A stretch of 64,000 bases of DNA from Clostridiales bacterium (lineage in GTDB: Bacteria; Bacillota; Peptococcia; DRI-13; UBA5745). Location: contig WRIW01000005.1 in NCBI GenBank assembly GCA_009782505.1, positions 7,044-71,043 of the forward strand. Direction: 5' to 3'. Positions 3,165 through 43,770 of this stretch are shown here, one piece after another. Below the pieces are notes generated by a model. The model saw nothing but the letters and a program-made list of their open reading frames with translations. It searched no databases and had not been told where the DNA came from. The first letter of the stretch is position 1. Every line of letters begins with the position of its first letter. The position numbers and the translations under genes are program-made.

Positions 3165-5419
3165 TGTTTGCCGTCGTACTGATCATGAATCCGGCGTTTG
3201 CCAAAGAGTTGATACTAACTTACGCCATCCGGGAAGGACAACCGTGCCTTCCCGGTATGTTGTATTCCGTAAAAGTCAGGGGGAGGGCGGAAGAAGGGCT
3301 CGTCCTGCGGCTGCGCAAGGAGCCGGGAGGGGAGTACCGCATGCAGGAGCTGGGGGAGGCGGTATACCCGTATCCCATGCTCAGCCGCCAGGGGCTGGCC
3401 CTGGCCCGCTGGATAGCGAGGTTCTATGTCTGCCCTCTGAACAGGGCTGCGGCGCTCTTCCTGCCCCCGGCGGTGAGGCCGGTGCAGGAGACCAGGTACT
3501 ATCTGGATTCTCCGGATAGCAACGATTTGCTTTTCATCGATCCCGCCTGGCAATTCCTCTGGGAAGGGCTGAAGAAGGCGGGGGCAAAGGGCATGTCCGC
3601 CGGGAGGATGAGGCAGCGTTGGGGCCCGGAGGCGGCGGGGCAGGCCGACACATGGGTAGAAGGCGGCTTTCTCAGGAAGGAGACCGGGCTCCGGCAGATA
3701 CGCAGAGCGCCGGGCGCCAAAGCGCCGGCAGATGCGATGCGAGGGGAGCTAAGCCCTGCATTGTCGCCGGATCAGCGAAGGGCCTACGAGGATATATGCG
3801 AAGATCTGGGGGTGGGGCGCTTCGGCGTGCATCTGCTGTTCGGCGTCACGGGCAGCGGCAAGACGGAAGTATACCTCCGCCTGGCAGCCCATGCCGCCGA
3901 GGCAGGCAGGCAAAGCATCTACCTGGTGCCCGAGATCAGCCTGGTGCCGCAGCTGACGGCGAAGGCGCGGCAGTGGTTTGGCGGGCAGGTGGCGGTACTG
4001 CACAGCAATCTCACGCCGGCTCAGAGAGTAGCCGAATGGCAACGGATAATGGACGGGGAAGTCAAGCTCATCGTCGGGCCAAGGTCGGCTTTGTTTGCCC
4101 CGGTGAAGGATCTGGGGCTCATCGTCATCGACGAGGAACATGAAAACACGTATAAGCAGAGCGAGCCGGAGCCGCGCTATGACGCCAGGGCCGCGGCGGA
4201 AGCCATGGCCAGGTTCTGTAAGGCTGTGGTGGTGAGGGGCTCGGCCACCCCGGACATGGAGAGCCTGTACCGGGCGGGGCGCGGGGAGATGGCGCTGCAC
4301 CCCCTGCCGGAGAGGATAGAGAAGAGGCCGATGCCGCCTATCCTGTGGGTCAACATGAACCGGGAAATGAAGGAAGGGCACCCCCATCCGGTAAGCCGCC
4401 GACTCCTGGAAGCCTTGAGGGACAGGAAGGCAAAAGGGGAACAGGCTATACTGCTGATGAACCGGAGAGGTTTCCACACTTATGTATTGTGCAGAGACTG
4501 CGGCCAAAGCCTGGAGTGCCCCCGGTGCAGCATCCCCCTCACCTATCATCGGCCATACCGGGCGGGGCAAGGCGGGCGGCGCGAGGCGGACGACCGCCTG
4601 ATCTGCCACTACTGCGGCTACCAAAGCGGGTTATGGGCCGCCTGCCCCCAATGCGGCGGCGGCATGCTCCAGTACATGGGCACCGGCACGCAGCGGGTGA
4701 TGGATTACCTGGAGAAGGAGATACCGGAGCTCAATTTACTCCGGCTGGATATGGACAGCACAGGGAAGGCCGGCAGCCACGGGAGGATACTGAAAGCATT
4801 TCAAGACGGGGAAGCCGACGTGCTGGTGGGCACCCAGATGGTGGCGAAAGGCTTTGACTTCCCGGGCGTGACCCTGTCGGCGGTGCTTCACATCGACGGT
4901 ATCATCAACCTGCCGGATTATCAGGGGAGCGAGCGGGCCATACAGCTCATCCTCCAGACGGCCGGGCGGGCGGGCAGGGGGGATATACCCGGCGAAGTGA
5001 TGGTGCAGACCTTCTATCCGGACAACCCCGTGCTGAAGCTCACGGGGGCGTACGACTATATGGGCTTCTACGAGAACGAACTGGCCCTGAGGCGGGCCCT
5101 GGACTATCCGCCCATCAAGAAAAGCGCCCGCATACTGGTGACCGGCGAAAACGAAGAGGACGTGGAGAAGGGGATAGGGGAGATCGCCGAGCACTGCAGG
5201 GCGTCGATGCCGGCGGAAGAAGCGGACAACATCATCTGGCTTGGCCCGGCGAGGGCGCCGGTGGAGAAAATCAAAAACCGCTGGCGGAGGCATCTCATCC
5301 TGCTTTCGGATAAGCGGGCGCCCCTGGCGCGCTGCCTGGCTTTAGCCAGGGCCAAGTCCGCCGCCTGGGGGGACGAGCCCAGGATCATTCTCGATATGGA
5401 GCCAAAGAGTTTGTTGTAA
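3164..5419 (+). CDS. priA: primosomal protein N' (replication restart helicase PriA)
   Basis: 751 aa. Walker A GVTGSGKTE, DEEH box (VIDEEHE) and the Cys-rich zinc insert (CRDCG..CPRC...CHYCG...CPQCG). ATGA overlap with the metK stop. Confidence 0.95.
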   Translation: MFAVVLIMNPAFAKELILTYAIREGQPCLPGMLYSVKVRGRAEEGLVLRLRKEPGGEYRMQELGEAVYPYPMLSRQGLALARWIARFYVCPLNRAAALFLPPAVRPVQETRYYLDSPDSNDLLFIDPAWQFLWEGLKKAGAKGMSAGRMRQRWGPEAAGQADTWVEGGFLRKETGLRQIRRAPGAKAPADAMRGELSPALSPDQRRAYEDICEDLGVGRFGVHLLFGVTGSGKTEVYLRLAAHAAEAGRQSIYLVPEISLVPQLTAKARQWFGGQVAVLHSNLTPAQRVAEWQRIMDGEVKLIVGPRSALFAPVKDLGLIVIDEEHENTYKQSEPEPRYDARAAAEAMARFCKAVVVRGSATPDMESLYRAGRGEMALHPLPERIEKRPMPPILWVNMNREMKEGHPHPVSRRLLEALRDRKAKGEQAILLMNRRGFHTYVLCRDCGQSLECPRCSIPLTYHRPYRAGQGGRREADDRLICHYCGYQSGLWAACPQCGGGMLQYMGTGTQRVMDYLEKEIPELNLLRLDMDSTGKAGSHGRILKAFQDGEADVLVGTQMVAKGFDFPGVTLSAVLHIDGIINLPDYQGSERAIQLILQTAGRAGRGDIPGEVMVQTFYPDNPVLKLTGAYDYMGFYENELALRRALDYPPIKKSARILVTGENEEDVEKGIGEIAEHCRASMPAEEADNIIWLGPARAPVEKIKNRWRRHLILLSDKRAPLARCLALARAKSAAWGDEPRIILDMEPKSLL

Positions 5420-7993: not shown

Positions 7994-8250
7994 GCTACAG
8001 TTCAGGGGGTCAGGGGCCCAAAGCGTGGCTATTTGTAAGCGATGGATTGAACGGCTTCGTCTGCCAGATAAGCAATCGCAAACCTGGCAAATCCTTGGGT
8101 GCGACACGGACGTCGCACCAGACGGAACGCGACACGATGTCGCGTTGGAGTCGTTAGGGTTTGCATCAAACGATTGCTATATCTGGCCGAAGCTGTGAAT
8201 CATCGCGGCAAATAGCCACGCTTTGGGCCCCTGACCCCCTGAACTGTAGC
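7994..8250. repeat. long-stem hairpin element E1
   Basis: The arms are 42 bp and perfectly complementary. 7994-8035 (GCTACAGTTCAGGGGGTCAGGGGCCCAAAGCGTGGCTATTTG) is the exact reverse complement of 8209-8250. The interior continues as an imperfect palindrome. It contains hairpins at 8098-8119 (loop ACGGAC) and 8126-8146 (loop ACGAT). Confidence 0.9.
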
Positions 8251-10509: not shown

Positions 10510-11421
10510 ATGAAGAAAAAAACAAACCAATCCTTCCGGATGAGACTGACGGCTATCAGCTTGCTGCTGCTCTGCTTCACGGCGATGATCCCGGCCCCTG
10601 CCGCAGCCGCCATCGTCACCACGGTGGCGCAAAAGACGGGGGTGACCGTCCACAGCAATGACAAGGTCTCCATCGACGCGTCCAATCTGGCGGAAGGCTA
10701 TGTGATCGTAAAGTACACCGGGGGCAAGGACGTCCGGATAAAGGCGCAAATCGCCAAGACCGGCGGCTCCACCTACAGCTATGACATCAATTCCAAGGGA
10801 AACCCGGAGATACTGCCCATCACCGAGGGGGACGGGGCGTACTCCATAGGCGTATTCGAGAATGTCTCTGGCAGCAAGTATGCCCAGGCTTACGCGGCTA
10901 AGGTAGACGTCAAGCTGAGAGACCCCCTGCTGCCCTTCCTCTACGCCAACCAGTACGTGAACTACACGGCCGGCTCCGATGTGGACAAGAAGGCCCAGGA
11001 GCTGGTCAAAGGCGTCACCGACACGCTGGATAAGCTCACCAAGATCTATGATTTCGTCACAAGCACGCTGACTTACGACACGGTGCTGGCTGCCAACGTA
11101 CAGGCGGGCTATCTGCCCAATGTAAACGAAGTGCTGTCGAAGAAGAAGGGCATATGCTTTGACTACGCCGCCCTCATGTCATCCATGCTGCGGCTTCAGG
11201 GCATCCCATCCAGGCTTTGCATCGGATACGCCGGCACTGTGTATCACGCCTGGATAGACGTATACACCGAGGAAGCGGGCTGGATCAAGGAAGCGGTGAA
11301 GTTCGACGGGAAGAAATGGACCCTGATGGACCCCACATTTGTATCCACCTCCAACTCCGCCGACGCGGTGAAGAATTTCGTGGGCTCGGGCAATAGCTAC
11401 CAGCAAAAATATGTTTACTAG
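10510..11421 (+). CDS. secreted transglutaminase-like (Cys-His-Asp) protein
   Basis: Signal peptide MKKKTNQSFRMRLTAISLLLLCFTAMIPAPAAA. Transglutaminase core KKGICFDYAALMSSMLRLQGIPSRL..GY....HAW..V......W..MDPT. ATG 10510 follows GGAG; the track start 10495 is also possible. Confidence 0.8.
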   Translation: MKKKTNQSFRMRLTAISLLLLCFTAMIPAPAAAAIVTTVAQKTGVTVHSNDKVSIDASNLAEGYVIVKYTGGKDVRIKAQIAKTGGSTYSYDINSKGNPEILPITEGDGAYSIGVFENVSGSKYAQAYAAKVDVKLRDPLLPFLYANQYVNYTAGSDVDKKAQELVKGVTDTLDKLTKIYDFVTSTLTYDTVLAANVQAGYLPNVNEVLSKKKGICFDYAALMSSMLRLQGIPSRLCIGYAGTVYHAWIDVYTEEAGWIKEAVKFDGKKWTLMDPTFVSTSNSADAVKNFVGSGNSYQQKYVY

Positions 11422-11582
11422 TACCGCGTTGCATCTAAAAGTTAAGATTTATTTGCGAGGATATTCTTCGCAAGACAAGGCACGATGAGCGCGAATAGCC
11501 GCTGTGCTATTTAAGTGAAGAGTAACGCAGTATTGTGGAGAATAAACCGCAAATAAACTAACTTTTAGGTGCAACGTGGTAC
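11421..11582. repeat. long-stem hairpin element E2
   Basis: 11421-11457 pairs with 11548-11582 over about 35 bp, with two G-U pairs on the + strand and one 2-nt bulge. The left arm starts on the last base of the transglutaminase stop codon. The interior has hairpin 11493-11512 and the heptamer CACGATG that is also found in E1 and E3. Confidence 0.8.
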
Positions 11583-13999: not shown

Positions 14000-14469
14000 G
14001 TGAGAAAAAAGGCAACCCCTTATACGGGATAGGCGGGGTGACCCTGCTGACTGTGCTCCTGGTGCTGTGCCTGACCTTGTTTTCCGTGCTGGCACTAAGC
14101 TCAGCCCAGGCGGATCGGCGCCTCAGCGAGAAAAGCGCCGCGTCGGTAACGGCTTACTATGAATCAGAAAATCAAATCCTGGAAATGATGAGGCAGATCG
14201 AGGGGATGTGGCCCGCGGGCCACAGGAGGCCCCAGGCCTCGGACATATCCGTCCGGCTCGCCTCCAAGTATGACGTATGGGTGGATACGGAGGGCGACGG
14301 CCTCATCATCTATACCGAGCTGCCCGTGATGGAGACCCAGACGCTGCAAGTCGAGGCCTACATCGGCCCCGGCGGCGACGGGGGGAGATGGGAAGTCCGC
14401 CAGTGGCAGCTCCTGCCCCCCGAGCAGGACGAAGGGGATATGGGCTTCCTCATCTTATGGGAGCCTTAA
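13996..14469 (+). CDS. pilin-like protein (E5-less minor pilin / PilX-ComGG-like)
   Basis: ATGA overlap with the upstream gene. The N-terminus ...GIGG|VTLLTVLLVLCLTLFSVLALS is followed by SAQADRRLSEKSAASVTAYYESENQ. Confidence 0.5.
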   Translation: MSEKKGNPLYGIGGVTLLTVLLVLCLTLFSVLALSSAQADRRLSEKSAASVTAYYESENQILEMMRQIEGMWPAGHRRPQASDISVRLASKYDVWVDTEGDGLIIYTELPVMETQTLQVEAYIGPGGDGGRWEVRQWQLLPPEQDEGDMGFLILWEP

Positions 14470-14526
14470 GCATACATATCTTCCAGGCTTAGGATTTGAA
14501 TTTCATAAAAGGAGCATAGGATAATT

Positions 14527-16075: not shown

Positions 16076-16104
16076 GCGCGCACTGATACTGTTCACTGAT
16101 TGCG

Positions 16105-16128
16105 GACGCCGGCGGACGGCGTCTTTTT
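16105..16128 (+). terminator. Rho-independent terminator of the filament-like operon
   Basis: Stem GACGCC / GGCGTC (16105-16110 / 16118-16123) with loop GGCGGAC, followed by TTTTT. Confidence 0.75.
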
Positions 16129-16151
16129 CTACGGCGCGGCGGCGGTCTGTA

Positions 16152-16380
16152 GCCGCCTGGTGGCAAGGCAACGCCCGATAGGGCGACATTGCGGCGTAGA
16201 TACGTAGACACGAATCAGGCATGCAGGCGGAGACATAGAAAAATCAGGACGATTTTTCAGGCGGAGGCCGACACGATGTCGGCTCGACGCCGGTATGTCG
16301 GAGCAAATCATGGCGATAAGGTGTTTCTTCGTTATATATAGCAGGAGCCCTATCAGGCGTTGCCTTGCCGCCGGGCCGTC
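16152..16380. repeat. long-stem hairpin element E3
   Basis: Core arms 16162-16184 and 16347-16369 are complementary at 22 of 23 positions, with about 7 more pairs outward. The interior holds hairpins 16238-16258 (loop AGGAC), 16267-16283 (loop ACGAT) and 16282-16304. Confidence 0.8.
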
Positions 16381-16409
16381 TGGACAAACCCCGCGGCGAA
16401 ACGTATAAT
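16381..16409 (+). promoter_or_regulatory. sigma-70-like promoter for the ferredoxin/AOR operon
   Basis: TGGACA (16381-16386), 17-nt spacer, TATAAT (16404-16409). It lies about 90 nt upstream of GTG 16499. Confidence 0.5.
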
Positions 16410-16498
16410 GGTAGAAGCGGGCGTAAAGGCGGCTCGCGTAGCCCCATCGAAAATTTAACTTAGGCTGCGCTGAAAGCGCGGCACTACTGAGGAAACGG

Positions 16499-16936: not shown

Positions 16937-18696
16937 TTTACGCCGACTATATCCGCGTTCTCCATATCGAGCTGGACAAGGGCAAGATATCCATTGCCCA
17001 ACGCGAGGACCTGACCCAATACCTGGGCGGCGTGGGGGTGGCGTCCAAGCTGCTGGAAGAATACATGCATCCCGAGCTGGAGCCCCTGGCGCCGGAGCAG
17101 CCCATCGTCTTCGCCATCGGCGCGTTATCCAGCGTATACCCCGTCATCACCAAGACCGTGGCTATGTTTATCTCGCCCCTCACCGGGGAGCTGGGGGAGA
17201 CCTATGCCGGCGGGCGCCTGGCCATGACTATGTTTCAAGCCGGGTTCGACGCCATCGTCATCACGGGCAGGGCGAAGGGACCGACCTATGTGGCCATCAA
17301 CGCAAACGACGTGGCTTTCAAGAACGCCGGCGCCATATGGGGCACGGGCAACGACTCGGCGGGCCAGATCATCCGGGACTCGGAGAAAGGCCCCAGCGGG
17401 AAGCGCTCCATCGTCCGCATCGGGACGGCAGGGGAAAACCTGGTGTCCTACGCCTGCGTGAATGTGGACCGGTACAGGCATTTCGGCCGCCTGGGGCTGG
17501 GCGCCGTATTTGGCTCCAAGTACCTGAAAGCCATGAGTGTAATCGGAAACAGGGACATGCCCATCGAGAACTTCCAGGAGTACTTCAAGGTGTACCGGGA
17601 GATATACGACAAGGCCACGGCCCAGGGCGGGGCGATGGCCAAGTACCACGACACGGGCACGGCTATCAATATAGAGCCCCTGAGCAAGATGGGGGGCTTG
17701 CCTACGCTGAATCTGCGGCAGGGCAGCTTCGAGGACGCGGACAAGGTGTCCGGCGACGCTTTCGCCAAGAACCAGCTTGTGAGGAAGATGGCGTGTACCG
17801 GCTGCCCCGTGGGATGCATACACATCGGGCAATTTCGGCGGGAGTTCGCCGACGAGGGTTATGAGTACGAAGCCGTCTCCGTGGGTTACGACTACGAGCT
17901 GATCTATGCCCTGGGGACTTTCCTGGGCATATCCGACCCGGAGAAGATACTGGAGCTCATCGACGAAGTGGAGACCGCCGGGCTGGACGCCATGAGCGCC
18001 GGGGTGGCGCTGGGCTGGGCCGCGGAGGCTTTGGAAAAGGGGCTGGTGACGGAGGAAGAGACCCTCGCGCCCCTGAAGTTCGGCGAACCCGAAGGCTTCC
18101 TGAAGGCCATACGCTACATCGCCGAAGGCAAGAACGAGTTCTACCTCCACTTGGGTAAGGGCGTGCGCCATGTGTCCCTGAAGTACGGCGGGTACGACTT
18201 CGGTATGCAGATCGCAGGCAACGAGATGGCGGGCTACCATACGGGCTACGGCTCCCTCATCGGCGCCGCCGTGGGGGCAAGGCATTCCCATCTGTGCAAT
18301 GGCGGGTACTCCGTGGACCAGGGCATGAAGGAGCCGGGGGTAGACCCGGACGCCATGGCTAAGTCCCTGCTGGACGAGGAAGTGGAGCGGTGCATGCTGA
18401 ACTCCCTGGTCATCTGCCTCTTTGCACGGAAAGTGTACGACAGGGAGACGGTACTGAAGGCGATGAAGGCCATCGGCATGGATATGACCGACGAGGAGCT
18501 GAGCGCCGTGGCGAAGCGCAACTATGCCACGAAGCTGCGGATAAAGAAAGCCCTTGGCTTCGACTGGGAAGGGATAAAGCTGCCGAAGCGCTACTTCGAG
18601 ACCCCTTCCGCCAGGGGGCAGCTGGACGAGGCCACGGCGGAAGAGATCCTGAGCCGCTACCGCGCGCGTATGGCGGAGTACCAGGCGGCGGAGTAA
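16933..18696 (+). CDS. aldehyde:ferredoxin oxidoreductase family protein (tungstopterin enzyme family)
   Basis: Start at ATG 16933, with an ATGA overlap onto the ferredoxin stop. The AFOR N-terminal pattern is YLGGVGVASKLL...PIVFAIGALS. The Fe-S/pterin ligand region is ACTGCPVGC. About 587 aa. Confidence 0.9.
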   Translation: MIYADYIRVLHIELDKGKISIAQREDLTQYLGGVGVASKLLEEYMHPELEPLAPEQPIVFAIGALSSVYPVITKTVAMFISPLTGELGETYAGGRLAMTMFQAGFDAIVITGRAKGPTYVAINANDVAFKNAGAIWGTGNDSAGQIIRDSEKGPSGKRSIVRIGTAGENLVSYACVNVDRYRHFGRLGLGAVFGSKYLKAMSVIGNRDMPIENFQEYFKVYREIYDKATAQGGAMAKYHDTGTAINIEPLSKMGGLPTLNLRQGSFEDADKVSGDAFAKNQLVRKMACTGCPVGCIHIGQFRREFADEGYEYEAVSVGYDYELIYALGTFLGISDPEKILELIDEVETAGLDAMSAGVALGWAAEALEKGLVTEEETLAPLKFGEPEGFLKAIRYIAEGKNEFYLHLGKGVRHVSLKYGGYDFGMQIAGNEMAGYHTGYGSLIGAAVGARHSHLCNGGYSVDQGMKEPGVDPDAMAKSLLDEEVERCMLNSLVICLFARKVYDRETVLKAMKAIGMDMTDEELSAVAKRNYATKLRIKKALGFDWEGIKLPKRYFETPSARGQLDEATAEEILSRYRARMAEYQAAE

Positions 18697-23005: not shown

Positions 23006-23256
23006 TGCCCCGCTGATTAATTCAATGGTTTATTAAACACCATAATAGTGTTATTTCGATTTCATCACACTCTCATTCTACATTCAACCCCCTTTCATTG
23101 TAGTATTATTTATCACAACCAATAGAAATGCACAGAAAAACTATACAATAAGAGATGGAGCATGTTATAATAAACCGCCATGACTATGGCTTTTGCGAAA
23201 TCTCTTGTTTTTCTATCTGTCTCAATACGCCTGTATAAAAAATGGAGGGGTCGTTT

Positions 23257-26200
23257 ATGTTTAAACCAGTCAGTAAGGCAAACCGTTGGATGAGCGCGGC
23301 ATTGGCTTTGGTATTCCTCTTTTCCATCGCCGTGCCGGCTTTTGTAGCCTGGGGCGTGGATGAATCCGCCGGTGTAGTGGCGGAAGGCGGGGACGCGGCG
23401 CCCGGCGGCACGGAGGAGCCTGGCGAAGGCGACGGCTCCGGCGAAGCCGGGGACGAGGCATTGGAGCCGGACGAAGGGGAGGCGGAGAGCGGCCCCGGTA
23501 AGGCAGGCGACGGCAGCGGCGCAGGCGCGGGCTTGCCTATGTTTGCCGGGATCAACGCCCTGGCGGCGGCCTTAGGCGAGGACAACGGCCTCTTCGAGCC
23601 CTTGGGCGGCGGCATGGGCATCATGGCGCTGGACGGGGAGATCGGGCTCTTCGCGGCGGGGGACGCCAATTCGGACTTAGCGAATTTCATTACCAGCGTG
23701 GTGGTCAGGGATTCCTCGGGAACCTTGATGAATGACGCCAGCTACTACTACATCGGTGATACTTACGAGTTCACCATCGACTTTACGGAGCACGCGGGCA
23801 CAGACGGGCAATTTGAATATGACTTCGATGACTTTCTGACTTATCAGCTGCCGGAATATTTAAAGATAACGAGTCCAGTTGAAGGTGATATCCATGTCGC
23901 CAGCAGCGCCGCAGGAGCCGCTCCGGGCGCGACAGTAAAAGTTGGTCAATACACTATCGATACTTCTGGATTAGTTAAGGTGCGGTTTAACGACATCGAT
24001 ACAGCAGGTTATGATATCGAGGAAAACTTCATCGACCATTATACCAACGCCTGGTTTAGCCTGGCGATTGAAGCGGATCTGATTTCAGCGCCCAGCGGGG
24101 GCAGGGTGGTATTTGGCGCGGACGCCATCGTGAATATAAAAGTCTATGTCGCGCCTCCGGACGCCGCCGTTGTGAGCGTCAGCAAGACCGGGACGCCCAT
24201 TACAGGCGACAAGATCAATTATGAGGTAACCATCACCGCTTCCGGCAACACCGTGAAAAACATCGTTTTTAACGACTACCCATGGATCAAGAAGAGTAGC
24301 AGTGGGAGTAATTTAACGATTACGAATCCGGATAACGCCAATACCGCATATACGAACTTTTCGTATATTATCTATGACGCTTCGGGGAGTCCCAGAACAG
24401 GTTCGGTAGAGATGAGCGGCGGCGTGTGGGCGCCGGCGACCGGTACAGGCACGACTACCGGCACGACAAACTTCCGCACCCATTATATCTATGACTTTTC
24501 CGCGGTGGAGTTGGAGCCAGATGAAAAAATCGTCGTGACTTATACCCTGGACGTACAGAAGCTGATGGCGAACAACGGCTTGTACACGAGCGATAACGCC
24601 GAATCCTTAAACTATTATCTGGACGTAGGGAATGATGTAAAGGTAGAGAGCAATGCCGTCATAGCAAGCACGTTTGATCCGGCTGGTCATCATTACTCGA
24701 AGTCATTTGCGTTTACGAAAGTCGGCAGCGAAGGCGCCGCTGAGAATACGATTGATTGGATAGTAACTGTAGGTAAGTCTGGTCCAACAGAGGAACCTCT
24801 TAACGGCGGAGAAATCAGAGATTCCCTTAACGTAGCAAGCACGGCTCTGACCGGATCGTCGAACATGCCCGCGGATAGCGCGATTGAAATCACCCTAGTA
24901 GAGAGCGGTAGCATAAGCAACATCTTTACAGCTGATAAAATACCAGGGTTTAGCTTTACAGGGAATGAATTTCGATTTACTATCCCGGCGAATCTAACGT
25001 CATTAGTCGATAAAGGCGGAACTTCAAGGACGATCGGCAATGTTTATCAGGTGATAGTCAAATACGCGTCTACCTACTCAACACCGGCAAGCGGGACAAG
25101 CCCTGTTATATTCGGAAATACGGCGTATTACCATGAATTGAGCGTATCCGATACGGTTTCAGTTACGCCGCCTGCAAGGAAAGAAGAGACGACCGTAACT
25201 AAGTCAGGCGGCTGGACGCAAAGCGAATATGACAACAAGATCACTTGGCAATGCGATATCGGCGGTGGTATTGAAGAACTTACTTCGTCTGTCATTTCCG
25301 ACAAATTAGCGGCGACTGTTGGCGAGGACGATATCTCTGGCTTTATGGGTATGCCGGATAAGAGCAAGATAAAGGTTGTAGTGTATGGAGCACCGACCTA
25401 TCACGATACCGTGAATAATGTAATGAAATTCCAAACCTCCGATATCATTTTTAATGATTATGCCAATCATGCTAGTATTAACAGTTCATTTTTAATTGAT
25501 GGAGATAATAAGGGATTCTCCTTCAAAATTCCAAATCTCGGTAAAGATATCTACCGTGTCTATATCGAGTATACGACGGATATCCTGCTGCCTATCCCGG
25601 ACGACGCCGGCGACTTTGTATATAAGAATGAAGTCGATCTTGACGGCGGGAAATCAGATTACGACGAGTTTGTCATCCAGAGACCAGCAGCTGGAGAGAA
25701 ATCATATAAAACCGGCGACTGGAACGGGGAGGACATCGAGTGGGAAATCAAAATCGGTGACGGGACTGTCCCGCTGAATCTTATAACAATAACCGACACT
25801 CTCAGTTCTGATTTGGCAAGTATAATAGAATTGCCTAACGCGAATAAAATTAATATCGACATATATGGCAGGCCTTCGGGCGTATTAGGAGGCAAAGCTG
25901 ATTTTAAAGATAGAGATTTAATTGGCGAATACACTGCGGATGTTTTTACTTCTGATTTCACAATAAACGGCGATAAATCGGAATTCGTATTTACAGTTCC
26001 AGAAAATAACCCGAATGGTGGTACATTTGGCGCTATTTATCAAATAATCATCACTTATGCCACTCCGCTTTCGATTCTGCCAGACATCAATGAGGATTTT
26101 GACTATGTGAACGAGTTGGCATTATCGAATGAAATAGTCATCGATCCGGTATATGTAACAATACCCGGACCAATCCCAGGGAAATTTATCCATAAATGGG

Positions 26201-29200
26201 GCGTACCCGTCGGGCTTAGCGTAAGGGATGGGATAGAATGGACGAGTTCAATCGGCAACGGCATTGAGCCGCTAAACGGGCAAACCATAACCGATACGCT
26301 CATTGTGATTGGCGATGGGACAATGAAATTCCCGGTGCAAGAAGACATACAAATCCGCTTCTATGGGAAACCAACAGACATAGCCGACGGCAATGTCGCG
26401 GTATTCCATCCGGTGGATGATTTGCTGTGTACTTTTGATGTAGATGGTGGCGATTACGATGAACTGGAATTCGAGTTTATCGGGGATGACGAATTTCAAT
26501 TTACCGTTCCCAAAAGCATAAGTGACGGTGGGTCGTATGATATTTACGGCATCGTGATTACCTATACTACGCCTGTTGAGGGGCCAAAGTTTGGGAATAC
26601 TAGCGCGGCGACTTACTCGAATAGAATAGGGATCGACTTAGATATAGAATACGATACCTCAACTGAGGAAAGCGGGTCTCACACCGTCAGTGTTCCGACG
26701 CTAAAAACTTCATTTGGCTCGAAAACCGGTGTAAAAGACGGCGTTGTCGATAACAAAATCAAGTGGACCAGCATCATTGGCAACGGCTCGTTGCCATTAA
26801 ATGGGCAAACGATAACAGATACGATTTCCGGCGGTGGAAAAGCAACTCTCCTTAATGACAGCGATTTTAAAATCAAACTTTATGGAAGCCCGTCGAGCAT
26901 CGATAGCAGCAACGTAGTGGACTTCTGCGAGGATGACTTGATTGGTGAATTTACCCCCACGCATTTTGGAGCGGACTTTGCAATAAAAGATAATGGCTTT
27001 ACATTTGATGTACCAACGACCAATCCAATAACATCGGATGTTTTTGAAAACATCTATCAAATCCAAATCGAATACTCAACAACGGTGGATAAACCAGTGC
27101 TTGGGGACAGCAACTTCGATTATGTGAATAAGGTCGAAGTCGGAGGAAAAACCATCACTTCTAATACCGTTCACTATGCCGCGCCTCAGCCTATGCCGCC
27201 ATCAATCATCAAGTCGTCGAAAATGATAAAAATCAGCTCCGGAGATTATGCTGGCCAGGTTGGTATGGAGTATACGGTAGAGATAACTGTACCGGAAGGG
27301 AACAAAGGCAAAAGGTTCTATCTGCAGGACGTCCTGAACGTGAACGGCGGCTCAAACATCGGCGTCAAGAATATTCCACTGAACTTCAGCGCTGAGATTA
27401 GCCCGGCGCCGTCCGGCAGCGAACCGGCATTCGACGCCAGTTCGTACAATCTGGTGACCAGCGCCGCCAGTAATACGTATTATGTATATTTCCCTAAAAC
27501 CGCTACATCGTCAACGACAACGGCGTGGCAGTACAGCACCGTAAAGACTCTTACTATCTCCTATGTTATCCCGTTTGATCGCACAGAAACCACAGGAACC
27601 AGGACGATCGAGGAACTGTTGAAAGCTTCCAGCGCGAATCGGCTTACGAATACGGCGACGGTGCAGGGAGCTTCCGGTGTAAACTATACGACAAATAACG
27701 CCTGGCCCGTGCATAAGAGCGTAAGGGCAGTGGCAGGCGACCCGACGCTATTTGAGTACACGGTGACGATAAACGGAAACTCGGCTTACCGACAAAGCTT
27801 ATTCGAAGCCGATGAAAGCGCTGTATTCATCGATGATTATGACCCGGCACTGATGTATGTGCCCAAGTCGTTTTATGCCATTAATTATGTCGGCGCTACC
27901 AGCATAACATACGGACCTTATGATGGAACGGGGATCATTGGCGGCGGGAGCGTAACTGAAATGCGAAGCGGGGATCCTCCAGCGTTGGCAGTAAATGAGA
28001 GCAGCGGCTCGCTCACTGTGCATCTGGAAGAACTGAACCAACTGAAATGGTCCAGCAATCTCGCGGCGTCAAGCGTGCAAGGGATTCCTGACAATGAAAC
28101 ATGGTACGCGGACAGCAATATGATCGAGATACACTACCAGCTGCGGATCAAAGACCCCAGCGCTATAGAGGAAAGGTTTACTGTATTAAAAAATAGCGCT
28201 TCGATCACTTCGAATGTGCAGAGCCTGATATTCTCAAACAACGCGTCTGTGACCTATGAGATGAAGCCGCTTGGCAAATCATGGAAGAATAATACCGGTT
28301 CAAGCGTGATCGGCGCGGAAATCATCATTAACCCGCAGGGCGCCAGGCTCGCGCCGGTAGGCGACGGCCGGTACACGGCAATCGACACCATGAGCGACAA
28401 TCTGGTGATCTTCCTGGGAAGCGTAAAGTTTTATACACAGGCGAAAGTCGGCGGCACATGGAACGGCGTGTGGGGAACTCCCTTTGACGCCGCTACTATC
28501 CCGGGCGCACTATGGAGCGTGGCTATCGATCCCATCGACTCAAACGTAACCTATTTTGTCCTGCCGGACGAGCAACCGATAAAAATCACATACGACGCGT
28601 TTGTAACGGAGCAGCCGGGTGTTACGTCCACATTGATGAACAGCATTGAAGTATGCGGCTATTATCAGAAAGCGGACGATCTCAGCTACAAAGTCATTAA
28701 CGCCAGCGCGGGCGCGGGCGCCCACCGAGTCGACCTGACCTTGCAGAAAACAGATATCGATACGGGCGTAGGTTTGCCCGGCGCTGAGTTTGAGCTCTAC
28801 ATCGGCTTCCCGCCGGATTACGACAAGTTTGACAACACCGCCGGATCGGTGCTTAAAGTAGAAGATTCAAGTGGAGTGGAATATGCTTTCTACCGAGTCG
28901 AAGACCTGGCGAATCCCATTGTTACAGGAGCGAACGGGAAGGCGACGATCAGTTCGGGGTGGCTGGTGGGGTCGCACAATTTCGTCTACCTCTTAGTCGA
29001 AAAGATAGCGCCTTCGGGGGATTACCTACTTCCCAGAGGCTCTGACGCATACACATTCTTTACCCTTGCCGGCAATAAAATGACCTCCGCGCAGCTCACC
29101 GCCCTCAATGCCGCGTTTGGAACGGTGTACCGCAATGTAACCGATACTGTGCCTGTAGCGAACAGCGTGGCGACTTGCGCCGCAGCCATCGACGGGACGA

Positions 29201-30462
29201 AAGCCCTCGAAGGTATTGAAGAGACAAACAAGCCCTTCACGTTCAATGCGGTACAGGTGACAGGGATGGAAAGCGATACGCCGGTCGCCGGGGGCTTAAG
29301 TGGCTCAAGCATCATAACGGGCGCGGGCGGATTCAGTATCGAAATCGACGGACTACTTAAATCCGGGAGCCCGTACTACTTCAAGGTCAGCGAGGATCAG
29401 ACCGGCAACGGTTTGAGGGGCTGGATCTATGACGAACACGCGTTCTGGGTGACGGTCACCGTAGCGGAGCAGGCGGACGGTACGCTGGGCGCTACGGTTT
29501 CGAGCCCAAGCGGAAGCACGACGTTTACCAACCAGTACGAGAAAGAAGACTTCGGGCCGGGCAACGCGCATATCCGGTTTGTGAAAATCATCAAGGGGCG
29601 GGTATCCACCGAAGAGATATTCACCTTTGACTTAGTCGAAGTGGCGGATCCCGAAGGCGGCGCGAAGAGCAATCCATTTACCAAGCGGGTCACGACGACG
29701 GGAAGCTTGACCCAGGATGTGGGGCAACTCCTCGAAGTCGAAATCAACGATTTGGCGCCCGGGAAGTATTACTTCAAAATCACGGAAAACAGCGACAGTA
29801 AGAAATCCGGATGGACCTATTCGACGCTCACTTATATCGTGGAAGTCATCGTGTATGACGACCTGGTCGTCGATATCAATTATCCGGACGTATACTCCAG
29901 CGGTTATCCGCCCGAGTTCACCAACACCTACAAAGCGCCGAGCGACCCGCCGGACGACCCGCCTGGCGGCGGCGACCCGCCTCCGGGGGTGACGCCTCCC
30001 GGCGGTACCGATCCCCCTCCCGGCGGAAATGAGGGCGACGACGACGCGGACGGCGACGGAGACGCCGATGGTGATGCCGATGGCGATGGCGACGGAGACG
30101 GAGACGGCGGCCGCGGCGGCGGCGATGAAGAAGAACCCTATGTAGAAGGCGGGCACTTCCACGATGTACCGCCCCTGGCCCACAGGCAGGGCGACAACAT
30201 CGTATGGGTGGACGACGAGCACTACATCGAGTTTGACGAGGACGGCGTACCCCTGGGCGAATGGCACTGGGACGACGAGTTGGAGGAATGGATATTTGAC
30301 GAGTTCCCGCCTCTGGGGGCGCTTCCCAGAACAGGCGCCGTAGCGATACCGGCGGCGCTATCCCTGATGTTGGGCGGTTCCTCGCTGGGCGCGATGACGG
30401 CGCTGAGGAAAAACGCGAAGAAGCGCGGGGCACACAACAAGATCAAGGGAGCATCACACTGA
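23257..30462 (+). CDS. giant LPXTG-anchored surface protein 1 (about 2400 aa)
   Basis: GGAGGGG RBS, ATG 23257 and signal peptide MFKPVSKANRWMSAALALVFLFSIAVPAFVAWG. The body has five divergent repeats of roughly 165-175 aa. A SpaA/CnaB-like domain follows (LQKTDIDTGVGLPGAEFELY...YLLVEKIAPSGDY). Two Spy0128/FctA-like pilin-isopeptide domains are present (FTFNAVQV...YYFKVSEDQ; FTFDLVEV...YYFKITENSD). The C-terminus has a P/G and D-G acidic tract, then LPRTG (30322-30336), a TM helix and a basic tail. Confidence 0.9.
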   Translation: MFKPVSKANRWMSAALALVFLFSIAVPAFVAWGVDESAGVVAEGGDAAPGGTEEPGEGDGSGEAGDEALEPDEGEAESGPGKAGDGSGAGAGLPMFAGINALAAALGEDNGLFEPLGGGMGIMALDGEIGLFAAGDANSDLANFITSVVVRDSSGTLMNDASYYYIGDTYEFTIDFTEHAGTDGQFEYDFDDFLTYQLPEYLKITSPVEGDIHVASSAAGAAPGATVKVGQYTIDTSGLVKVRFNDIDTAGYDIEENFIDHYTNAWFSLAIEADLISAPSGGRVVFGADAIVNIKVYVAPPDAAVVSVSKTGTPITGDKINYEVTITASGNTVKNIVFNDYPWIKKSSSGSNLTITNPDNANTAYTNFSYIIYDASGSPRTGSVEMSGGVWAPATGTGTTTGTTNFRTHYIYDFSAVELEPDEKIVVTYTLDVQKLMANNGLYTSDNAESLNYYLDVGNDVKVESNAVIASTFDPAGHHYSKSFAFTKVGSEGAAENTIDWIVTVGKSGPTEEPLNGGEIRDSLNVASTALTGSSNMPADSAIEITLVESGSISNIFTADKIPGFSFTGNEFRFTIPANLTSLVDKGGTSRTIGNVYQVIVKYASTYSTPASGTSPVIFGNTAYYHELSVSDTVSVTPPARKEETTVTKSGGWTQSEYDNKITWQCDIGGGIEELTSSVISDKLAATVGEDDISGFMGMPDKSKIKVVVYGAPTYHDTVNNVMKFQTSDIIFNDYANHASINSSFLIDGDNKGFSFKIPNLGKDIYRVYIEYTTDILLPIPDDAGDFVYKNEVDLDGGKSDYDEFVIQRPAAGEKSYKTGDWNGEDIEWEIKIGDGTVPLNLITITDTLSSDLASIIELPNANKINIDIYGRPSGVLGGKADFKDRDLIGEYTADVFTSDFTINGDKSEFVFTVPENNPNGGTFGAIYQIIITYATPLSILPDINEDFDYVNELALSNEIVIDPVYVTIPGPIPGKFIHKWGVPVGLSVRDGIEWTSSIGNGIEPLNGQTITDTLIVIGDGTMKFPVQEDIQIRFYGKPTDIADGNVAVFHPVDDLLCTFDVDGGDYDELEFEFIGDDEFQFTVPKSISDGGSYDIYGIVITYTTPVEGPKFGNTSAATYSNRIGIDLDIEYDTSTEESGSHTVSVPTLKTSFGSKTGVKDGVVDNKIKWTSIIGNGSLPLNGQTITDTISGGGKATLLNDSDFKIKLYGSPSSIDSSNVVDFCEDDLIGEFTPTHFGADFAIKDNGFTFDVPTTNPITSDVFENIYQIQIEYSTTVDKPVLGDSNFDYVNKVEVGGKTITSNTVHYAAPQPMPPSIIKSSKMIKISSGDYAGQVGMEYTVEITVPEGNKGKRFYLQDVLNVNGGSNIGVKNIPLNFSAEISPAPSGSEPAFDASSYNLVTSAASNTYYVYFPKTATSSTTTAWQYSTVKTLTISYVIPFDRTETTGTRTIEELLKASSANRLTNTATVQGASGVNYTTNNAWPVHKSVRAVAGDPTLFEYTVTINGNSAYRQSLFEADESAVFIDDYDPALMYVPKSFYAINYVGATSITYGPYDGTGIIGGGSVTEMRSGDPPALAVNESSGSLTVHLEELNQLKWSSNLAASSVQGIPDNETWYADSNMIEIHYQLRIKDPSAIEERFTVLKNSASITSNVQSLIFSNNASVTYEMKPLGKSWKNNTGSSVIGAEIIINPQGARLAPVGDGRYTAIDTMSDNLVIFLGSVKFYTQAKVGGTWNGVWGTPFDAATIPGALWSVAIDPIDSNVTYFVLPDEQPIKITYDAFVTEQPGVTSTLMNSIEVCGYYQKADDLSYKVINASAGAGAHRVDLTLQKTDIDTGVGLPGAEFELYIGFPPDYDKFDNTAGSVLKVEDSSGVEYAFYRVEDLANPIVTGANGKATISSGWLVGSHNFVYLLVEKIAPSGDYLLPRGSDAYTFFTLAGNKMTSAQLTALNAAFGTVYRNVTDTVPVANSVATCAAAIDGTKALEGIEETNKPFTFNAVQVTGMESDTPVAGGLSGSSIITGAGGFSIEIDGLLKSGSPYYFKVSEDQTGNGLRGWIYDEHAFWVTVTVAEQADGTLGATVSSPSGSTTFTNQYEKEDFGPGNAHIRFVKIIKGRVSTEEIFTFDLVEVADPEGGAKSNPFTKRVTTTGSLTQDVGQLLEVEINDLAPGKYYFKITENSDSKKSGWTYSTLTYIVEVIVYDDLVVDINYPDVYSSGYPPEFTNTYKAPSDPPDDPPGGGDPPPGVTPPGGTDPPPGGNEGDDDADGDGDADGDADGDGDGDGDGGRGGGDEEEPYVEGGHFHDVPPLAHRQGDNIVWVDDEHYIEFDEDGVPLGEWHWDDELEEWIFDEFPPLGALPRTGAVAIPAALSLMLGGSSLGAMTALRKNAKKRGAHNKIKGASH
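24650..27180 (+). repeat. five divergent tandem protein repeats of about 165-175 aa inside adhesin 1
   Basis: A recurring W-x-x-x-IG-x-G-x-x-PLNG-x-x-ITDTL block occurs at about 24751, 25239, 25736, 26233 and 26758. Each unit ends in an IYQ[VI].I.Y.T-like strand. The region is visibly AT-rich. Confidence 0.75.
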
Positions 30463-30611: not shown

Positions 30612-33600
30612 ATGAAGGAAAAGATTTCACAAATGACGAATGGTATCTTAGGGAGGGCGAAACGCCGCGGCCTTGTTGCCAGAAGAATTCTGGGCGTTAT
30701 GCTTACCATTGCTCTGCTGATGAGCCTGGCGCCTGCGGGGCTCTACCAGTCGACGGCATACGCAGCGAAGCCGGCGACCGCCCCCGCCGACGCGGTGATG
30801 GTCAGCCTGGAGGGCGGGGGAATCATCTATGTCAAAGTCGCCGAAGCGCTGACTAAAGTCAACGCGGGGGAGAGCTTCTTCTTCAATCTGGAGTACTGGG
30901 TCGATACTGCCGAGCCTATATGGGAAGACGCGAAGCTGACCTTGAGCGTGCCAGCTGGCTTTTTCCCGGGGGCGTTCAGCAGCGTATATGCCGACAGCAA
31001 CTATCATATCAAGAGCCATTCGGCAACCGGAACGGGCTCAACATACCCCAAGACCCTGACGATCACCTTCGGCACGACGAGGTCAGACTTCTCCATAACC
31101 GACGCTACATACGGCTCTCTGAACTTCCAATACGGGACGGCTTCCGTCACAGATGAAGAGACGCTAAACCCGAATATAACGGCGGGAACAAATAGCGCGG
31201 TTGTATACAGCAAGGGGCTGACCGTATTGCCCAGTCCCGGCGTGGGCGAGGGCGGGTACTACATAGACGTCAGCAAAGAAGTGTCCTTCCTGGGAAAGAC
31301 AAACGGGGATAAGTATGACGCCTCGGTCGTCGATGCTCGCGCGTATACCGATAAATGGGACGGCATGATGCAGTATGCATTCAATAAGAGCGAGATGGAA
31401 ATGGTCGCGTACAGCATAGTCGTGAATTCCGGAGAGGGCGATGAGTATAAAACAGGCGTAAAAACCTTCGATGAACTGGAGATCATCGAGAAGATACCCG
31501 CCGGGCTTGAACTATACACCCCTGAGGAAATCGTGGGGCTGAGAGAGCAGCTCAATAAAACAACAACCCCGGCGGCAGGAGGGACGGTCGTACCCGGGTG
31601 GTACTCCTACTGCTTGCGAAGCGATTACAGCATGCAAATCGAAGTCGTCCACAACGACGCGGACGGCGAGATCGAGGACTACTATGCCCTGAGTGCTGAG
31701 ATACCGGGCAACGATTACGCCGCGAACGGCTTAAGCATTGTTTATGATCCTGTGGAGCGGGAATTAAAGATAAAAGTTAAGCCGGATCCTGACGGGGAGA
31801 AGTTGTTGAGTTACGGATACGACGAGGTTAATGAGGAAGATACAGAGCATTATATGCAAAAGAACGACGGGATTGTCGTAATCCTCTTTCTGAAAAAAAC
31901 CTCGACCGCGGATTTAGCGGCATACGAAAATCATGTGTCGGCCGAATTTACAAAAGGCAGCGAGGTTGAGAAAGCGGCATTTGACAATACTCTGTACTAC
32001 CTTGGCGGCGCGTCGTCCCAGTTTGTGCAAAAGAAAACCGGCTTGGATCTTGGCAATATCGCCATCTACAACACGGCTAACCCGTTGCTCATCGACCCGG
32101 AAAAAATCGACGTGGATAAAAATGAGGTTGATATCTACTACACCATCGAGTACCTGGTGACGGGGGAAAACGCCCCCGCTTATAGTATCGACCTTTTGGA
32201 CGAATTACCCCCGCAGTTTAAATCCGCGACATGGGTGGATGATAGCGCCTATACATCGAGCCAGATCGATACAACGGAGACGATCACAGGCTCAGCCGGG
32301 AGCGTGGAGGTGGCGGTACGGAACAACTCCCCGGTGAATCTCGGCGAAGGGGGGACGCCGACCCTTGTGAAAGCGACGTTTTGCGCCGTACTTGACATGA
32401 GTAAGGTCCAGCCTGGGGATATCATCCAAAACGTAGTGACCAAAGGCGGCGCGCCGGTATCGCCTCCCGCAGTCATTAAGCCCCCGGCAGAAATTACCAT
32501 TAGGAAGACTGTTGGTGGGTCAGAGCCCGACCTGGATGATAGCTTTGATTTTATCTTGATGAAAAACGAAGGCGGGTATTATCTACCACTTACGATGAAC
32601 GGCTCCGATTGCGCGTACTTGTTAAGCAGCTACAACAGCTTTCAATACGAGCACATCAGGCTTGCGCCCGGGTTATACAAAATCGTTGAGGAGGCGTGGG
32701 ACGGTGACAAATATACAGCGGCAGCGGATTCGACTTTCGAGGTCAACGACGCTTGTGAGATCGTCAATGTCAACACCGGCGCGGGGACTTCCTTCAGCTA
32801 CGAGAAGCTGCCTCCGCCGCCAGGTGCAGACAACCTGAGCGCCGGAGTCTTTATCATCGACAACGCGAGGGTGAGTCTGCCCGGGCTCGCGAGTGTCGCG
32901 CTCAACGGCGTAAAGAAGGTAGTAGGCGAGGATATCCCGGTGGGGGAATCCTTCCGATTCGAGCTCAGTGAGGTTACCAGCCTCGGCGGCGCGGTCGAAT
33001 CTACAGTGATACCGTCGCCCGGATACCTGAGGGATACGGTAACGACCAATTCTTCCAGTGAGAAAAGTTACTCGTTTTCCTTTTTCGTCAGTGATTTGGC
33101 CGACGATACGTACTACTTCATGGTCGAAGAGGTAGGCGAGGCGCCTGAGGGCTGGACGTTTGCCACAGAGCCGCAAATCGTGGAAGTCGTCGTCGCCGAC
33201 GGAGTTGCCGCGGTGTACTATCCCGACGGATCGCCGGGGGGGCTGAGCTTCACGAACGAGTACGAGGCGGAGCCAGGCGAGGAACCTGATCCCGGAGAAG
33301 AGCCAGAGCCGGAGCCGGGAGAGGAACCAGACCCTGAGCCGGTGGTGGAGCCGGAGCCGGGAGAAGCAGAAGTCAGATTCAGAAAGACGATAAGCGGCAG
33401 GATCGATACCAATGAGATTTTCCGCTTTACCGTTGTACAAGTGACGGACGGGACAGGCAATATGGTTTATGCAGGGGAAGACAGGATAAGCGTGCCGCCC
33501 GTCGCCACCACAGGGACGATCACGGCAGCCGCCGGGCAGATGATGAGCGTCGCCGTCGGCGGGCTTGAGCCGGGGCGGACTTACTACTTCCGCATCACTG

Positions 33601-42843: not shown

Positions 42844-42953
42844 GGCGCGTCACCCCTTCGCATATATCATACCACAACCGGGCGTTTTTCACATCAGGGG
42901 ATCAAGTTGAAGCAAAGGATAAATAAGTTGCGCCAACGAATTCCTTGTGTATA

Positions 42954-42982
42954 TTGCGACAAGTAATAAATTTTGTTATACT
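42954..42982 (+). promoter_or_regulatory. promoter of the MNT-HEPN module
   Basis: TTGCGA (42954-42959), 17 nt, extended -10 TGtTATACT (42974-42982). Confidence 0.5.
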
Positions 42983-43007
42983 TTGTTTGTATTGGAGATT
43001 AGTGCAT

Positions 43008-43391
43008 ATGAAAAAAATTATCGATTTAAATGAACTCAATCTGCCTGAAAAGCAAAGAGGCTTTTTACAGTTTTTCCTTACTAGGATTTCGGCTACCGAC
43101 ATCGTTGAAAGGATAATTCTTTTTGGGAGTTGCGCAAAGGGAAATCTACACAGATATAGCGATATAGATATTTTTATCGTTACTAATCGTGAACCAACGA
43201 TTAATGATGAGATTTTCTTAATGGCTGATTGTCCGCCTGACTACACGAATGAGTACTACCTACAGGCGGATATTATCATTAAGCCGATTGAGAATTATGA
43301 GAAACATAAAAATGAAATGGGTATGGTACAAAAATACGTAGAACTGGAAGGGGTTGACTTAACTGGACTATTATCAAAACGCGCTGGATAA
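43008..43391 (+). CDS. minimal nucleotidyltransferase (MNT) antitoxin-type protein
   Basis: Start at ATG 43008. NTase motif ILFGSCAKGNLHRYSDIDIFIV. The gene is AT-rich. Confidence 0.8.
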   Translation: MKKIIDLNELNLPEKQRGFLQFFLTRISATDIVERIILFGSCAKGNLHRYSDIDIFIVTNREPTINDEIFLMADCPPDYTNEYYLQADIIIKPIENYEKHKNEMGMVQKYVELEGVDLTGLLSKRAG

Positions 43392-43455
43392 TGAAGCGAT
43401 TGCAAGACTGTCCTATGGCTATGGCAAGTATCAGGTTAGCATCGCATTAGCGTGT

Positions 43456-43770
43456 TTGTCTATTGAGCTTTTCCTAAAGTCAGTACTCAATCGTGTTGAG
43501 CACGACGTCGAATTGGAAAATAGTCATGACGTCATCAATATATACCGCTGCATCATCAAACGTTATCAATCGGAAAATGATTTATTGCCATGCCTGGTTA
43601 TTAGCCGAAAATATTTCAATGAAGCCAGATATCCTGTGTCAGATTCATCAGCTTATACGAAAGAGTTTTGCGAGGAGATTCTCAATTACATTGACTTAAT
43701 TAAAAGCTTTATCGACAAAGACTGTAATGCCAGCCTTGATGACTTGAGTAGGAGATTCGAGAAGTTGTAG
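43456..43770 (+). CDS. HEPN-domain protein (toxin partner of MNT); N-terminus unresolved
   Basis: SIELFLKSVL...SHDVINIY...ARYP is a HEPN pattern. The frame stays open upstream to 43363 and encodes NEAIARLSYGYGKYQVSIALAC, but with no ATG, GTG or TTG. An ATG at 43391 is in another frame. Confidence 0.6.
   Translation: MSIELFLKSVLNRVEHDVELENSHDVINIYRCIIKRYQSENDLLPCLVISRKYFNEARYPVSDSSAYTKEFCEEILNYIDLIKSFIDKDCNASLDDLSRRFEKL

Follow-up and report, generated by a model that had tools for sequence, protein, structure and literature searches.

A divergent TwoAYGGAY-class hairpin, overlooked by current Rfam models, beside a pilus gene cluster of a Clostridiales bacterium

Results and discussion

This study deals with E3, a long hairpin of ~225 nt found at 16155-16376 (+ strand) in a 64,000-nt stretch of Clostridiales DNA (assembly GCA_009782505.1, contig WRIW01000005.1, positions 7,044 to 71,043). 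This stretch is hereafter called the window, and all positions without further label refer to it. On the evidence of sequence and predicted structure, E3 is a genuine but divergent and so far unannotated member of the TwoAYGGAY class (Rfam RF01731), overlooked by current Rfam models. Our preferred explanation, to which we give a probability of about one in two, is that E3 is a diverged copy belonging to a dispersed, strand-specific hairpin repeat with a protein-docking apex, and that it is passive at its present site.

Assignment of E3 to the TwoAYGGAY class

A sequence-only reading of the window had singled out three long hairpins, E1, E2 and E3, and had proposed that E1 and E3 form a family of structured elements. 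The family proved real, although it is not a new one, since E1 is a member of RF01731. Its segment 8044-8203 scored 50.4 bits (gathering score 43), and this match is enclosed by a perfect 42-bp outer stem (42/42; 7994-8035 paired with 8209-8250), giving a full-length element of 257 nt at 7994-8250 (+ strand; fold z = -20.6). Such stems were already described by Weinberg et al. in 2010 (PMC2864571 supplement), who reported two AYGGAY loops and a closing P1 stem that is "often very large".

The assignment of E3 was less direct. An Rfam search of 351 nt at E <= 10 gave no match of E3 to RF01731 or to RF01690 (Bacillaceae-1), nor anything else of relevance. A covariance model of the 78-nt junction, R2, was therefore built from four E1-type sequences that each pass RF01731, namely E1 and three copies from another metagenome (one in L087 and two in L109), E3 being left out. 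R2 matched E3 over its full length (16232-16299, + strand) with 37.6 bits and an E-value of ~4e-8, the runner-up in the window scoring 13.5 bits. Likewise, no more than 18.1 bits were reached by ~120 decoy loci, in which this primary pattern lies in coding DNA (820 kb). Since the model hit E3 over its full length while background and decoys stayed low, E3 is a true, though divergent, TwoAYGGAY relative.

TwoAYGGAY elements, which are known from Clostridia, share with E3 a three-way junction bearing two adjacent terminal hairpins, a loop with GGAY in it and an extended P1 helix that closes the whole and in many cases is almost perfectly paired. E3 differs from them in several respects. It has no reportable Rfam score and thus stays below the gathering score; its stems have no sequence in common with those of E1; and AYGGAY is not found in both of its loops. 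Loop A is shorter, keeping GGAY but falling one base short of AYGGAY, and loop B reads ACGAU, without GGA. Yet loop B is ACGAU in E1 and the other E1-type copies too, all of which pass the RF01731 threshold.

Architecture of E3

E3 folds as a rod with a Y-shaped tip. Its outer arms (16155-16184 and 16347-16376) form a 30-nt inverted repeat that is 27/30 (90%) complementary, encloses 162 nt and is paired in the minimum free energy structure. They contain the outer stem of 23 bp plus about 7 extra pairs that the sequence-only reading had described, all of whose coordinates and sequences, including those of hairpins A and B, were correct on checking. Inside these arms, 16185-16231 pairs with 16300-16346 through imperfect helices and internal loops to give the middle rod. 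The apex is a three-way junction, in which hairpins A and B lie under a common helix made of GACATA (16232-16237) and TATGTC (16294-16299); this helix aligns to the closing helix of model R2. Both the middle rod and the junction were obtained in the minimum free energy and centroid structures alike.

Hairpin A, GAAAAATC-AGGAC-GATTTTTC (16238-16258), has an 8-bp stem and is aligned by R2 to hairpin A of E1. Hairpin B, delimited at 16260-16291 by the fold and by the R2 alignment, consists of an outer helix GGCG/CGCC, an internal loop GAG/TCGA and an inner part GCCGAC-ACGAT-GTCGGC (16267-16283) whose loop is ACGAU as RNA. All these parts are given for the + strand.

The RNA fold of E3 reached -121.2 kcal/mol, against -77.5 +/- 4.5 kcal/mol for shuffled sequences (z = -9.6), and none of 200 shuffles was as good; folded as DNA, E3 gave z = -7.8. 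E1, E2 and E3 are the only inverted repeats of >=24 nt and >=90% complementarity in the window.

Resemblance between E1 and E3

The 13-mer CGACACGATGTCG, which the sequence-only reading had reported, occurs on the + strand of the window at 8130-8142 and 16269-16281 only, even when one mismatch is allowed (expected 0.06). The likeness reaches further than had been seen. A 35-nt pattern, GGACG-N6-CAG-N-CGGA-N3-CGACACGATGTCG, has 25 fixed positions with identical spacing in E1 and E3, and it matched these two alone in the window, even with three mismatches (expected 0.00). As had been claimed, the 8-bp stems of hairpin A differ wholly while pairing fully: all 8/8 pairs are replaced between E1 (GGTGCGAC) and E3 (GAAAAATC), both stems being entirely Watson-Crick, and they carry the loops ACGGAC and AGGAC, respectively. 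With loops and linker conserved and stems replaced but paired, E1 and E3 are members of a single family whose elements are structured as single strands.

A fortuitous match between two unrelated GC-rich hairpins, which the sequence-only reading had named as a way in which it could fail, can practically be dismissed. It is true that the 13-mer, and also a relaxed two-loop pattern, have many chance occurrences in coding DNA of GC-rich organisms, and that the 7-mer CACGATG is frequent in the window (24 sites, a count that also led us to reject this 7-mer as a motif common to E2 as well). Against this stand the expectation for the 25-position pattern, the distance between the R2 score of E3 and those of the decoys, and the position of both copies at the tips of long hairpins on the same strand; together, pattern, score and decoys effectively refute chance.

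Constraint on pairing and on strand

In an alignment of the four E1-type elements, both partners had changed in 22 of 99 predicted pairs without loss of pairing. These compensated pairs lie mostly in the fast-evolving outer stem, the inner ~180 nt being nearly invariant; for the inner stems, the four copies do not count as independent. The AYGGAY strand, which is the + strand in the window, folded better than its complement by 12-21 kcal/mol in all six elements compared (E1, E2, E3, L087 and the two of L109), and used 34 G.U pairs where the complement used 13. Strand-symmetric DNA processes would not give such an asymmetry. It places the folding constraint on the AYGGAY strand and argues that a single-stranded form of this strand, either RNA or single-stranded DNA, is kept folded. 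The claim of selection on structure thus stood in part: the covarying stems and the strand asymmetry are in its favour, but covariation between palindrome arms does not by itself prove selection on RNA structure, because correction of one arm by the other within the DNA could give the same pattern.

This last point leads to another explanation, in which E3 would be a functionless DNA palindrome, an old E1-like copy whose arms were kept complementary by template switching and not by selection. The near-perfect long arms (42/42 in E1, 27/30 in E3) and the lack of transcription signals would agree with it, and so would the palindromy that runs into non-homologous flanks in L087 and L109, as expected if palindromes were grown or corrected in DNA. 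We nevertheless hold it to be unlikely. Arm correction is strand-symmetric, and yet 6/6 elements favour the same strand; loops and linker have stayed constant through the turnover of the stems; and the apex is shared with Bacillaceae-1-type hairpins of low-GC organisms (see below).

Concerning these flanks, the E1-type copies at L087(-) ~4727-4981 and L109(-) ~14255-14502 were found nested in extra GC-rich palindromes of non-homologous flanking DNA, which reflects either insertion into hairpin loops or a palindrome growing outward.

Dispersed copies and empty sites

In a metagenome scan that returned at least 119 loci, ~110 of which were coding decoys and served as negative controls, three further E1-type copies appeared among the matches listed (one in L087, two in L109). 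They are 87-92% identical to E1 and scored 47.2, 44.0 and 43.4 bits with RF01731. Their contexts are unrelated to one another: a gap between URO-D-like and beta-lactamase-like genes, a position after a histidine-kinase gene, and a gap between hemerythrin and MIF-like genes, with either strand relative to the neighbour genes. E2 (11421-11582, + strand) represents a second repeat family; it is a long hairpin without a twin-hairpin apex and without any Rfam match. A homologue at L109 6064-6226, ~310 nt from an E1-type copy, is 76% identical to it and has compensated stems. Copies in unrelated contexts therefore number at least four for the E1 type and at least two for the E2 type, while the E3 subtype was seen once.

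Two observations concern E2 itself. Its conserved apex is a terminal hairpin AAUAsC-CGCUGU-GsUAUU with conserved unpaired stretches on either side, and the E2 family is a candidate structured repeat not yet in Rfam. Moreover, E2-type repeats break short-read assemblies, since contig L146 (k141_2027985, ERZ27257320; 5039-5201 aligned to L109 6042-6204) stops inside the hairpin.

Comparison with relatives revealed presence-absence polymorphism at orthologous sites for E1, E2 and E3. Among those with a SARP regulator 90% identical to that of the window, L015 and L017 display at the E3 site the same terminator, ~19 nt and the same promoter; in L014-L017 the gap between the transglutaminase and T2SS-F genes is 32 nt, without E2, and the SARP promoter region starts without E1. 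All three elements are missing from L018, L020, L142, L143 and L145 (SARP 68-79% identical). The relatives with empty sites are L015, L017, L018, L020, L142, L143 and L145, none of which keeps all three junctions. Because the distant relatives are also devoid of all three, parsimony favours three gains in the window lineage. In contigs encoding an identical copy of the 156-amino-acid protein that precedes E3, E3 was identical too. Relatives without E1-E3 carry other, unrelated hairpin repeats. In this lineage the elements behave as dispersed, lineage-specific intergenic repeats, gained or lost whole, with several families side by side.

Among these other repeats is a long hairpin, distinct from E1-E3 and with CAAAATTTSARGTTT in its arms, that occupies gaps between genes of this neighbourhood in the more distant L143 (16741-16881) and L145 (8015-8192); L145 has an additional long inverted repeat with unrelated AT-rich arms at 16267-16408.

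The idea that E1, E2 and E3 delimit and subdivide a SARP-sortase-filament cluster had to be abandoned. Relatives with the same cluster, from 90% down to 68% SARP identity, lack all three, and E1-type and E2-type copies sit in unrelated contexts. The location of E1-E3 beside the pilus cluster is probably coincidental, and the elements are probably irrelevant to it. Nor was a gut setting, also suggested earlier, established: the closest sequences came from metagenomes in ENA and JGI whose type is not specified.

As to the host, L087 and L109 come from the same metagenome. Contigs 99.9% identical to L109 occur both in ERZ27257320 (L146, described above) and in JGI 3300002505, the same two samples that contain window-type contigs, which suggests that L087, L109 and the window represent one species with many copies. 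No match was obtained by blastn of E1 and E3 against plasmid and phage collections, nor in viral contigs scanned with the strict 35-nt pattern. In species-representative genomes, the pattern of linker and hairpin B gave 11 matches, all apparently in coding DNA; 10/11 were one conserved alphaproteobacterial stretch and the last came from an Actinomycetota metagenome-assembled genome. Since all 11 are non-elements, the window species or its elements are absent from the representatives.

The E3 site

Gene order in the window is PriA, DUF4153, E1, SARP-GGDEF regulator, sortase, transglutaminase, E2, T2SS-F, pseudopilins, T2SS-E ATPase, a 156-amino-acid protein, terminator, E3, promoter, Fer4, AFOR and URO-D. 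The host represents an uncultured clostridial lineage, and its nearest named relatives, with 53% identity in SARP, are Flavonifractor and Lawsonibacter. E3 indeed lies between a terminator and the next promoter, both signals being confirmed: the intrinsic terminator of the pilus operon (16104-16128, + strand; hairpin 16104-16124 followed by a T run) ends 26 nt upstream of E3, and the Fer4/AFOR promoter TGGACA-17-TATAAT (16381-16409, + strand; 11/12 matches) has its -35 hexamer starting 5 nt past E3. A consensus scan revealed no promoter-like site within E3 or immediately before it. No T run follows 16376 on the + strand or precedes 16155 on the - strand, and E3 accordingly does not qualify as an intrinsic terminator. 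E1 begins 13 nt past a stop codon and is followed by a T run. All three elements are sense relative to their flanking operons.

Two features of the same neighbourhood were noted on the way. The SARP-90% relatives carry between DUF4153 and the SARP gene a ~5.7-kb block (L014 4120-9816, L017 3577-9272) that is lacking in the window and encodes an AAA_35 ATPase, a biotin-carboxyl carrier, an HMGL-like/PYC_OADA protein (carboxyltransferase-type), a biotin carboxylase and a 4HBT thioesterase. Further, the 5' leader of the Fer4/AFOR operon (16410-16498) is conserved with relatives (L017 ~17035-17235). L017 and L015 have two tandem copies of a ~45-nt piece, GGGTATGGGGCGGGAAGCCCCATCAA...CTAAGGCT, placed around a hairpin GGCATGAGTGACATGC..., and a similar piece occurs at a separate site in L018 (12330-12389). 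The leader had no Rfam match in a gathering-score scan of the whole window or in a scan at E <= 10 of 16100-16450; the conserved segment may represent either a leader that lacks annotation or a repeat.

Relationship with Bacillaceae-1

The apex of E3 also recalls Bacillaceae-1 (RF01690). Six twin hairpins from low-GC organisms were present among the listed matches of the metagenome scan, and five of these six pass RF01690 with scores of 50-78 bits, the RF01690 match and the shared pattern being on opposite strands. The RUCCU loops of Bacillaceae-1 are the reverse complement of AGGAY, the form of E3 loop A; its linker UGA corresponds to TCA in E3; and the layout of hairpin B, with an outer helix, an asymmetric internal loop and a 5-6 bp inner helix, is common to both. 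The minus strand of E3 displays loops AUCGU and GUCCU and linker UGA, and the AUCGU loop occurs 11 times in the published Bacillaceae-1 rows; this strand had no Rfam match (RF01690 gathering score 35 bits). A model built from six Bacillaceae-1-type sequences, R1, gave E3 15.1 bits (E ~0.05), which is weak though the best full-length match in the window. An alignment by MAFFT mixing E1-type and Bacillaceae-1-type apices was discarded, as hairpin A was misaligned. Bacillaceae-1 differs from E3 in being a 67-nt unit of two hairpins with 5-nt loops and no long closing rod, in occurring in low-GC Bacilli, and in being annotated on the other strand.

One non-palindromic hairpin, GCGACACGAUGUCGC, was identical in Bacillaceae-1 and TwoAYGGAY matches on opposite annotated strands; the Bacillaceae-1 matches that contain it are L104 5069-5135, L121 110-176, L122 4907-4973, L061 1693-1759 and L044 9814-9880. 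TwoAYGGAY and Bacillaceae-1 may thus be one superfamily, the strand of one having been mis-assigned or being irrelevant. A bolder version, which we regard as possible but doubtful, would make such a superfamily on opposite strands one of strand-specific hairpin repeats and not of CsrA sponges. The repeats would spread or be maintained because their apex is read by a dimeric enzyme binding single-stranded DNA or RNA, following a REPIN/RAYT-like or IS200/IS605-like logic, the stems would turn over or grow, and E1-E3 would stem from one proliferation burst in an Oscillospiraceae-like species.

Candidate functions

The only function put forward for these motifs is that of Gardner and Eldai (2015, PMC4333381), who proposed TwoAYGGAY and reverse-complemented Bacillaceae-1 as CsrA-sequestering small RNAs, found two strong CsrA-motif matches in each and called the strand of Bacillaceae-1 uncertain; TwoAYGGAY was placed in clan CL00106 following this proposal. 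We found no experimental test of TwoAYGGAY function in the literature. Applied here, E3, like E1, would be a trans-acting decoy of Csr/Rsm type whose GGA loops titrate the CsrA dimer away from mRNAs. Several features speak for it: loop A is an A(N)GGA hairpin loop in both E3 (C-AGGAC-G) and E1 (C-ACGGAC-G), as in the Csr/Rsm sponges CsrB and RsmZ; the better-folding strand is the AYGGAY strand; and E1 and E3 are sense to their flanking genes. The remaining evidence makes this role improbable, and the sponge idea does not suit this lineage well. GGA is missing from loop B of E1, E3 and the three E1-type copies, which leaves E3 with loop A as its single CsrA-type site, and this GGA-less loop is the best-conserved part, its ACGAU lying in the invariant 13-mer. 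E3 has neither promoter nor terminator of its own and stands behind a strong terminator, and E1 starts 13 nt past a stop codon. The copies in L087 and L109 have mixed orientation to their neighbours; known Csr/Rsm sponges resemble them neither in stem length, which is 40 to 110 bp with near-perfect pairing here, nor in insertion-deletion between relatives. Some of the published Bacillaceae-1 copies are located immediately 5' of 16S rRNA and so are transcribed in the opposite (RUCCU) sense. A tblastn search for CsrA in the collected DNA gave no match and is uninformative given the small genome fraction covered.

A role in cis seems less probable still. E3 would then serve as a back-up terminator or insulator between the pilus and Fer4/AFOR operons, or, in transcripts that read through, as a hairpin that is processed by RNase III or that confers stability. 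A very stable hairpin exactly between terminator and promoter might suggest this, as might the T run after E1, the location of E2 between cistrons and the sense orientation of all three. Relatives, however, have the same operons without any of E1-E3; E3 has no T run, and the one after E1 is already present in L017, which is devoid of E1; related copies are antisense to their neighbours; and a generic hairpin role leaves the conserved twin-loop apex unexplained.

Other known types of element were considered and rejected. An IS630/Tc1-type miniature inverted-repeat transposable element (MITE) with TA duplication (TA-CAGTT...AACTG-TA, in E1 and the L087 copy) was discarded, the palindrome extending two bases past TA and the other copies lacking the motif. 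Direct repeats GTCTG (5 nt, around E3) and TTTACTA (near E2) are not repeated in other copies. An invertible promoter would require an internal promoter, which is lacking, and arms vary between copies; integron attC sites are excluded by the lack of an R-box consensus and by relatives that retain the same genes without the elements; and a riboswitch or 5' leader does not agree with the position of E1 and E3 upstream of -35 hexamers.

The dispersed-repeat explanation

REP/BIME/REPIN sequences and bacterial MITEs such as Correia, RUP, bcr1 and ERIC are intergenic long-hairpin repeats of 100-300 nt, variable between close relatives, found in either orientation, often clustered and with pairing maintained; REPINs are read as single-stranded DNA hairpins by RAYT transposases. 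E1-E3 resemble them as intergenic long hairpins with patchy presence among relatives, either orientation and maintained pairing. They differ in showing no conserved termini, target duplication or partner transposase in the sequences compared, and in being conserved at the apex instead of the ends.

In the dispersed-repeat explanation that we prefer, the junction keeps loops A(Y)GGAC and ACGAU, both of them conserved, a fixed distance apart, and the two would form a bipartite dock for a dimeric or two-domain protein; such a protein had been proposed for the twin loops of Bacillaceae-1, in dimeric form, by Weinberg et al. (2010). The docking protein would read single-stranded hairpins, and the long stem would keep the apex extruded while being free to evolve provided that pairing is preserved. 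Either single-stranded DNA, as in systems of REP/RAYT or IS200/IS605 type, or RNA could be the form that is read. A REPIN/RAYT-like or IS200/IS605-like mechanism on single-stranded DNA would account for the strand bias, the missing target duplication and the conserved loops. E3 itself would most likely be a passive insertion between the terminator and the -35 hexamer, outside the regulation of the pilus cluster.

A number of points weigh against this explanation. E3 was single-copy in all sequences collected, and its mobility is for this reason deduced from what the E1 and E2 families show, together with the empty site. At that site, global alignment of filled and empty versions fixed the right boundary alone, the intergenic DNA of the closest relatives being too diverged for the left one. 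Neither the E1-type copies nor the E3 site showed a target-site duplication, a conserved terminal inverted repeat or a sharp common end, and homology between E1-type copies fades outward. The 35 open reading frames of the window, compared with Pfam, included no transposase, integrase or HUH nuclease gene, so that among these frames and the copies compared neither a partner enzyme nor defined ends were found for a mechanism on single-stranded DNA. RNA and single-stranded DNA are not separable on these data, the docking protein is hypothetical, and the placement of L087, L109 and the window in one species is based on co-occurrence alone.

Other loci in the window

Adjacent NTP_transf_2 nucleotidyltransferase and HEPN genes at 42945-43770 are typical of an MNT-HEPN toxin-antitoxin module. 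Three very large open reading frames, at 23242-30462 (2406 amino acids), 30612-34316 (1234 amino acids) and 44819-50347 (1842 amino acids), may be the sortase substrates or filament proteins mentioned in the sequence-only reading.

Conclusion

Since 2010, TwoAYGGAY and Bacillaceae-1 have stood as orphan motifs, with CsrA sequestration as their sole functional proposal. The window comes from a lineage where the second loop, without GGA, is the most conserved part and where the elements vary between relatives whose SARP regulators are 90% identical. These features, the location of the elements outside obvious transcription units and the occurrence of one hairpin B in both Rfam families on opposite annotated strands jointly make a mobile or single-stranded-DNA reading testable against that of a sponge. 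For annotation, copies like E3 escape the current Rfam model.

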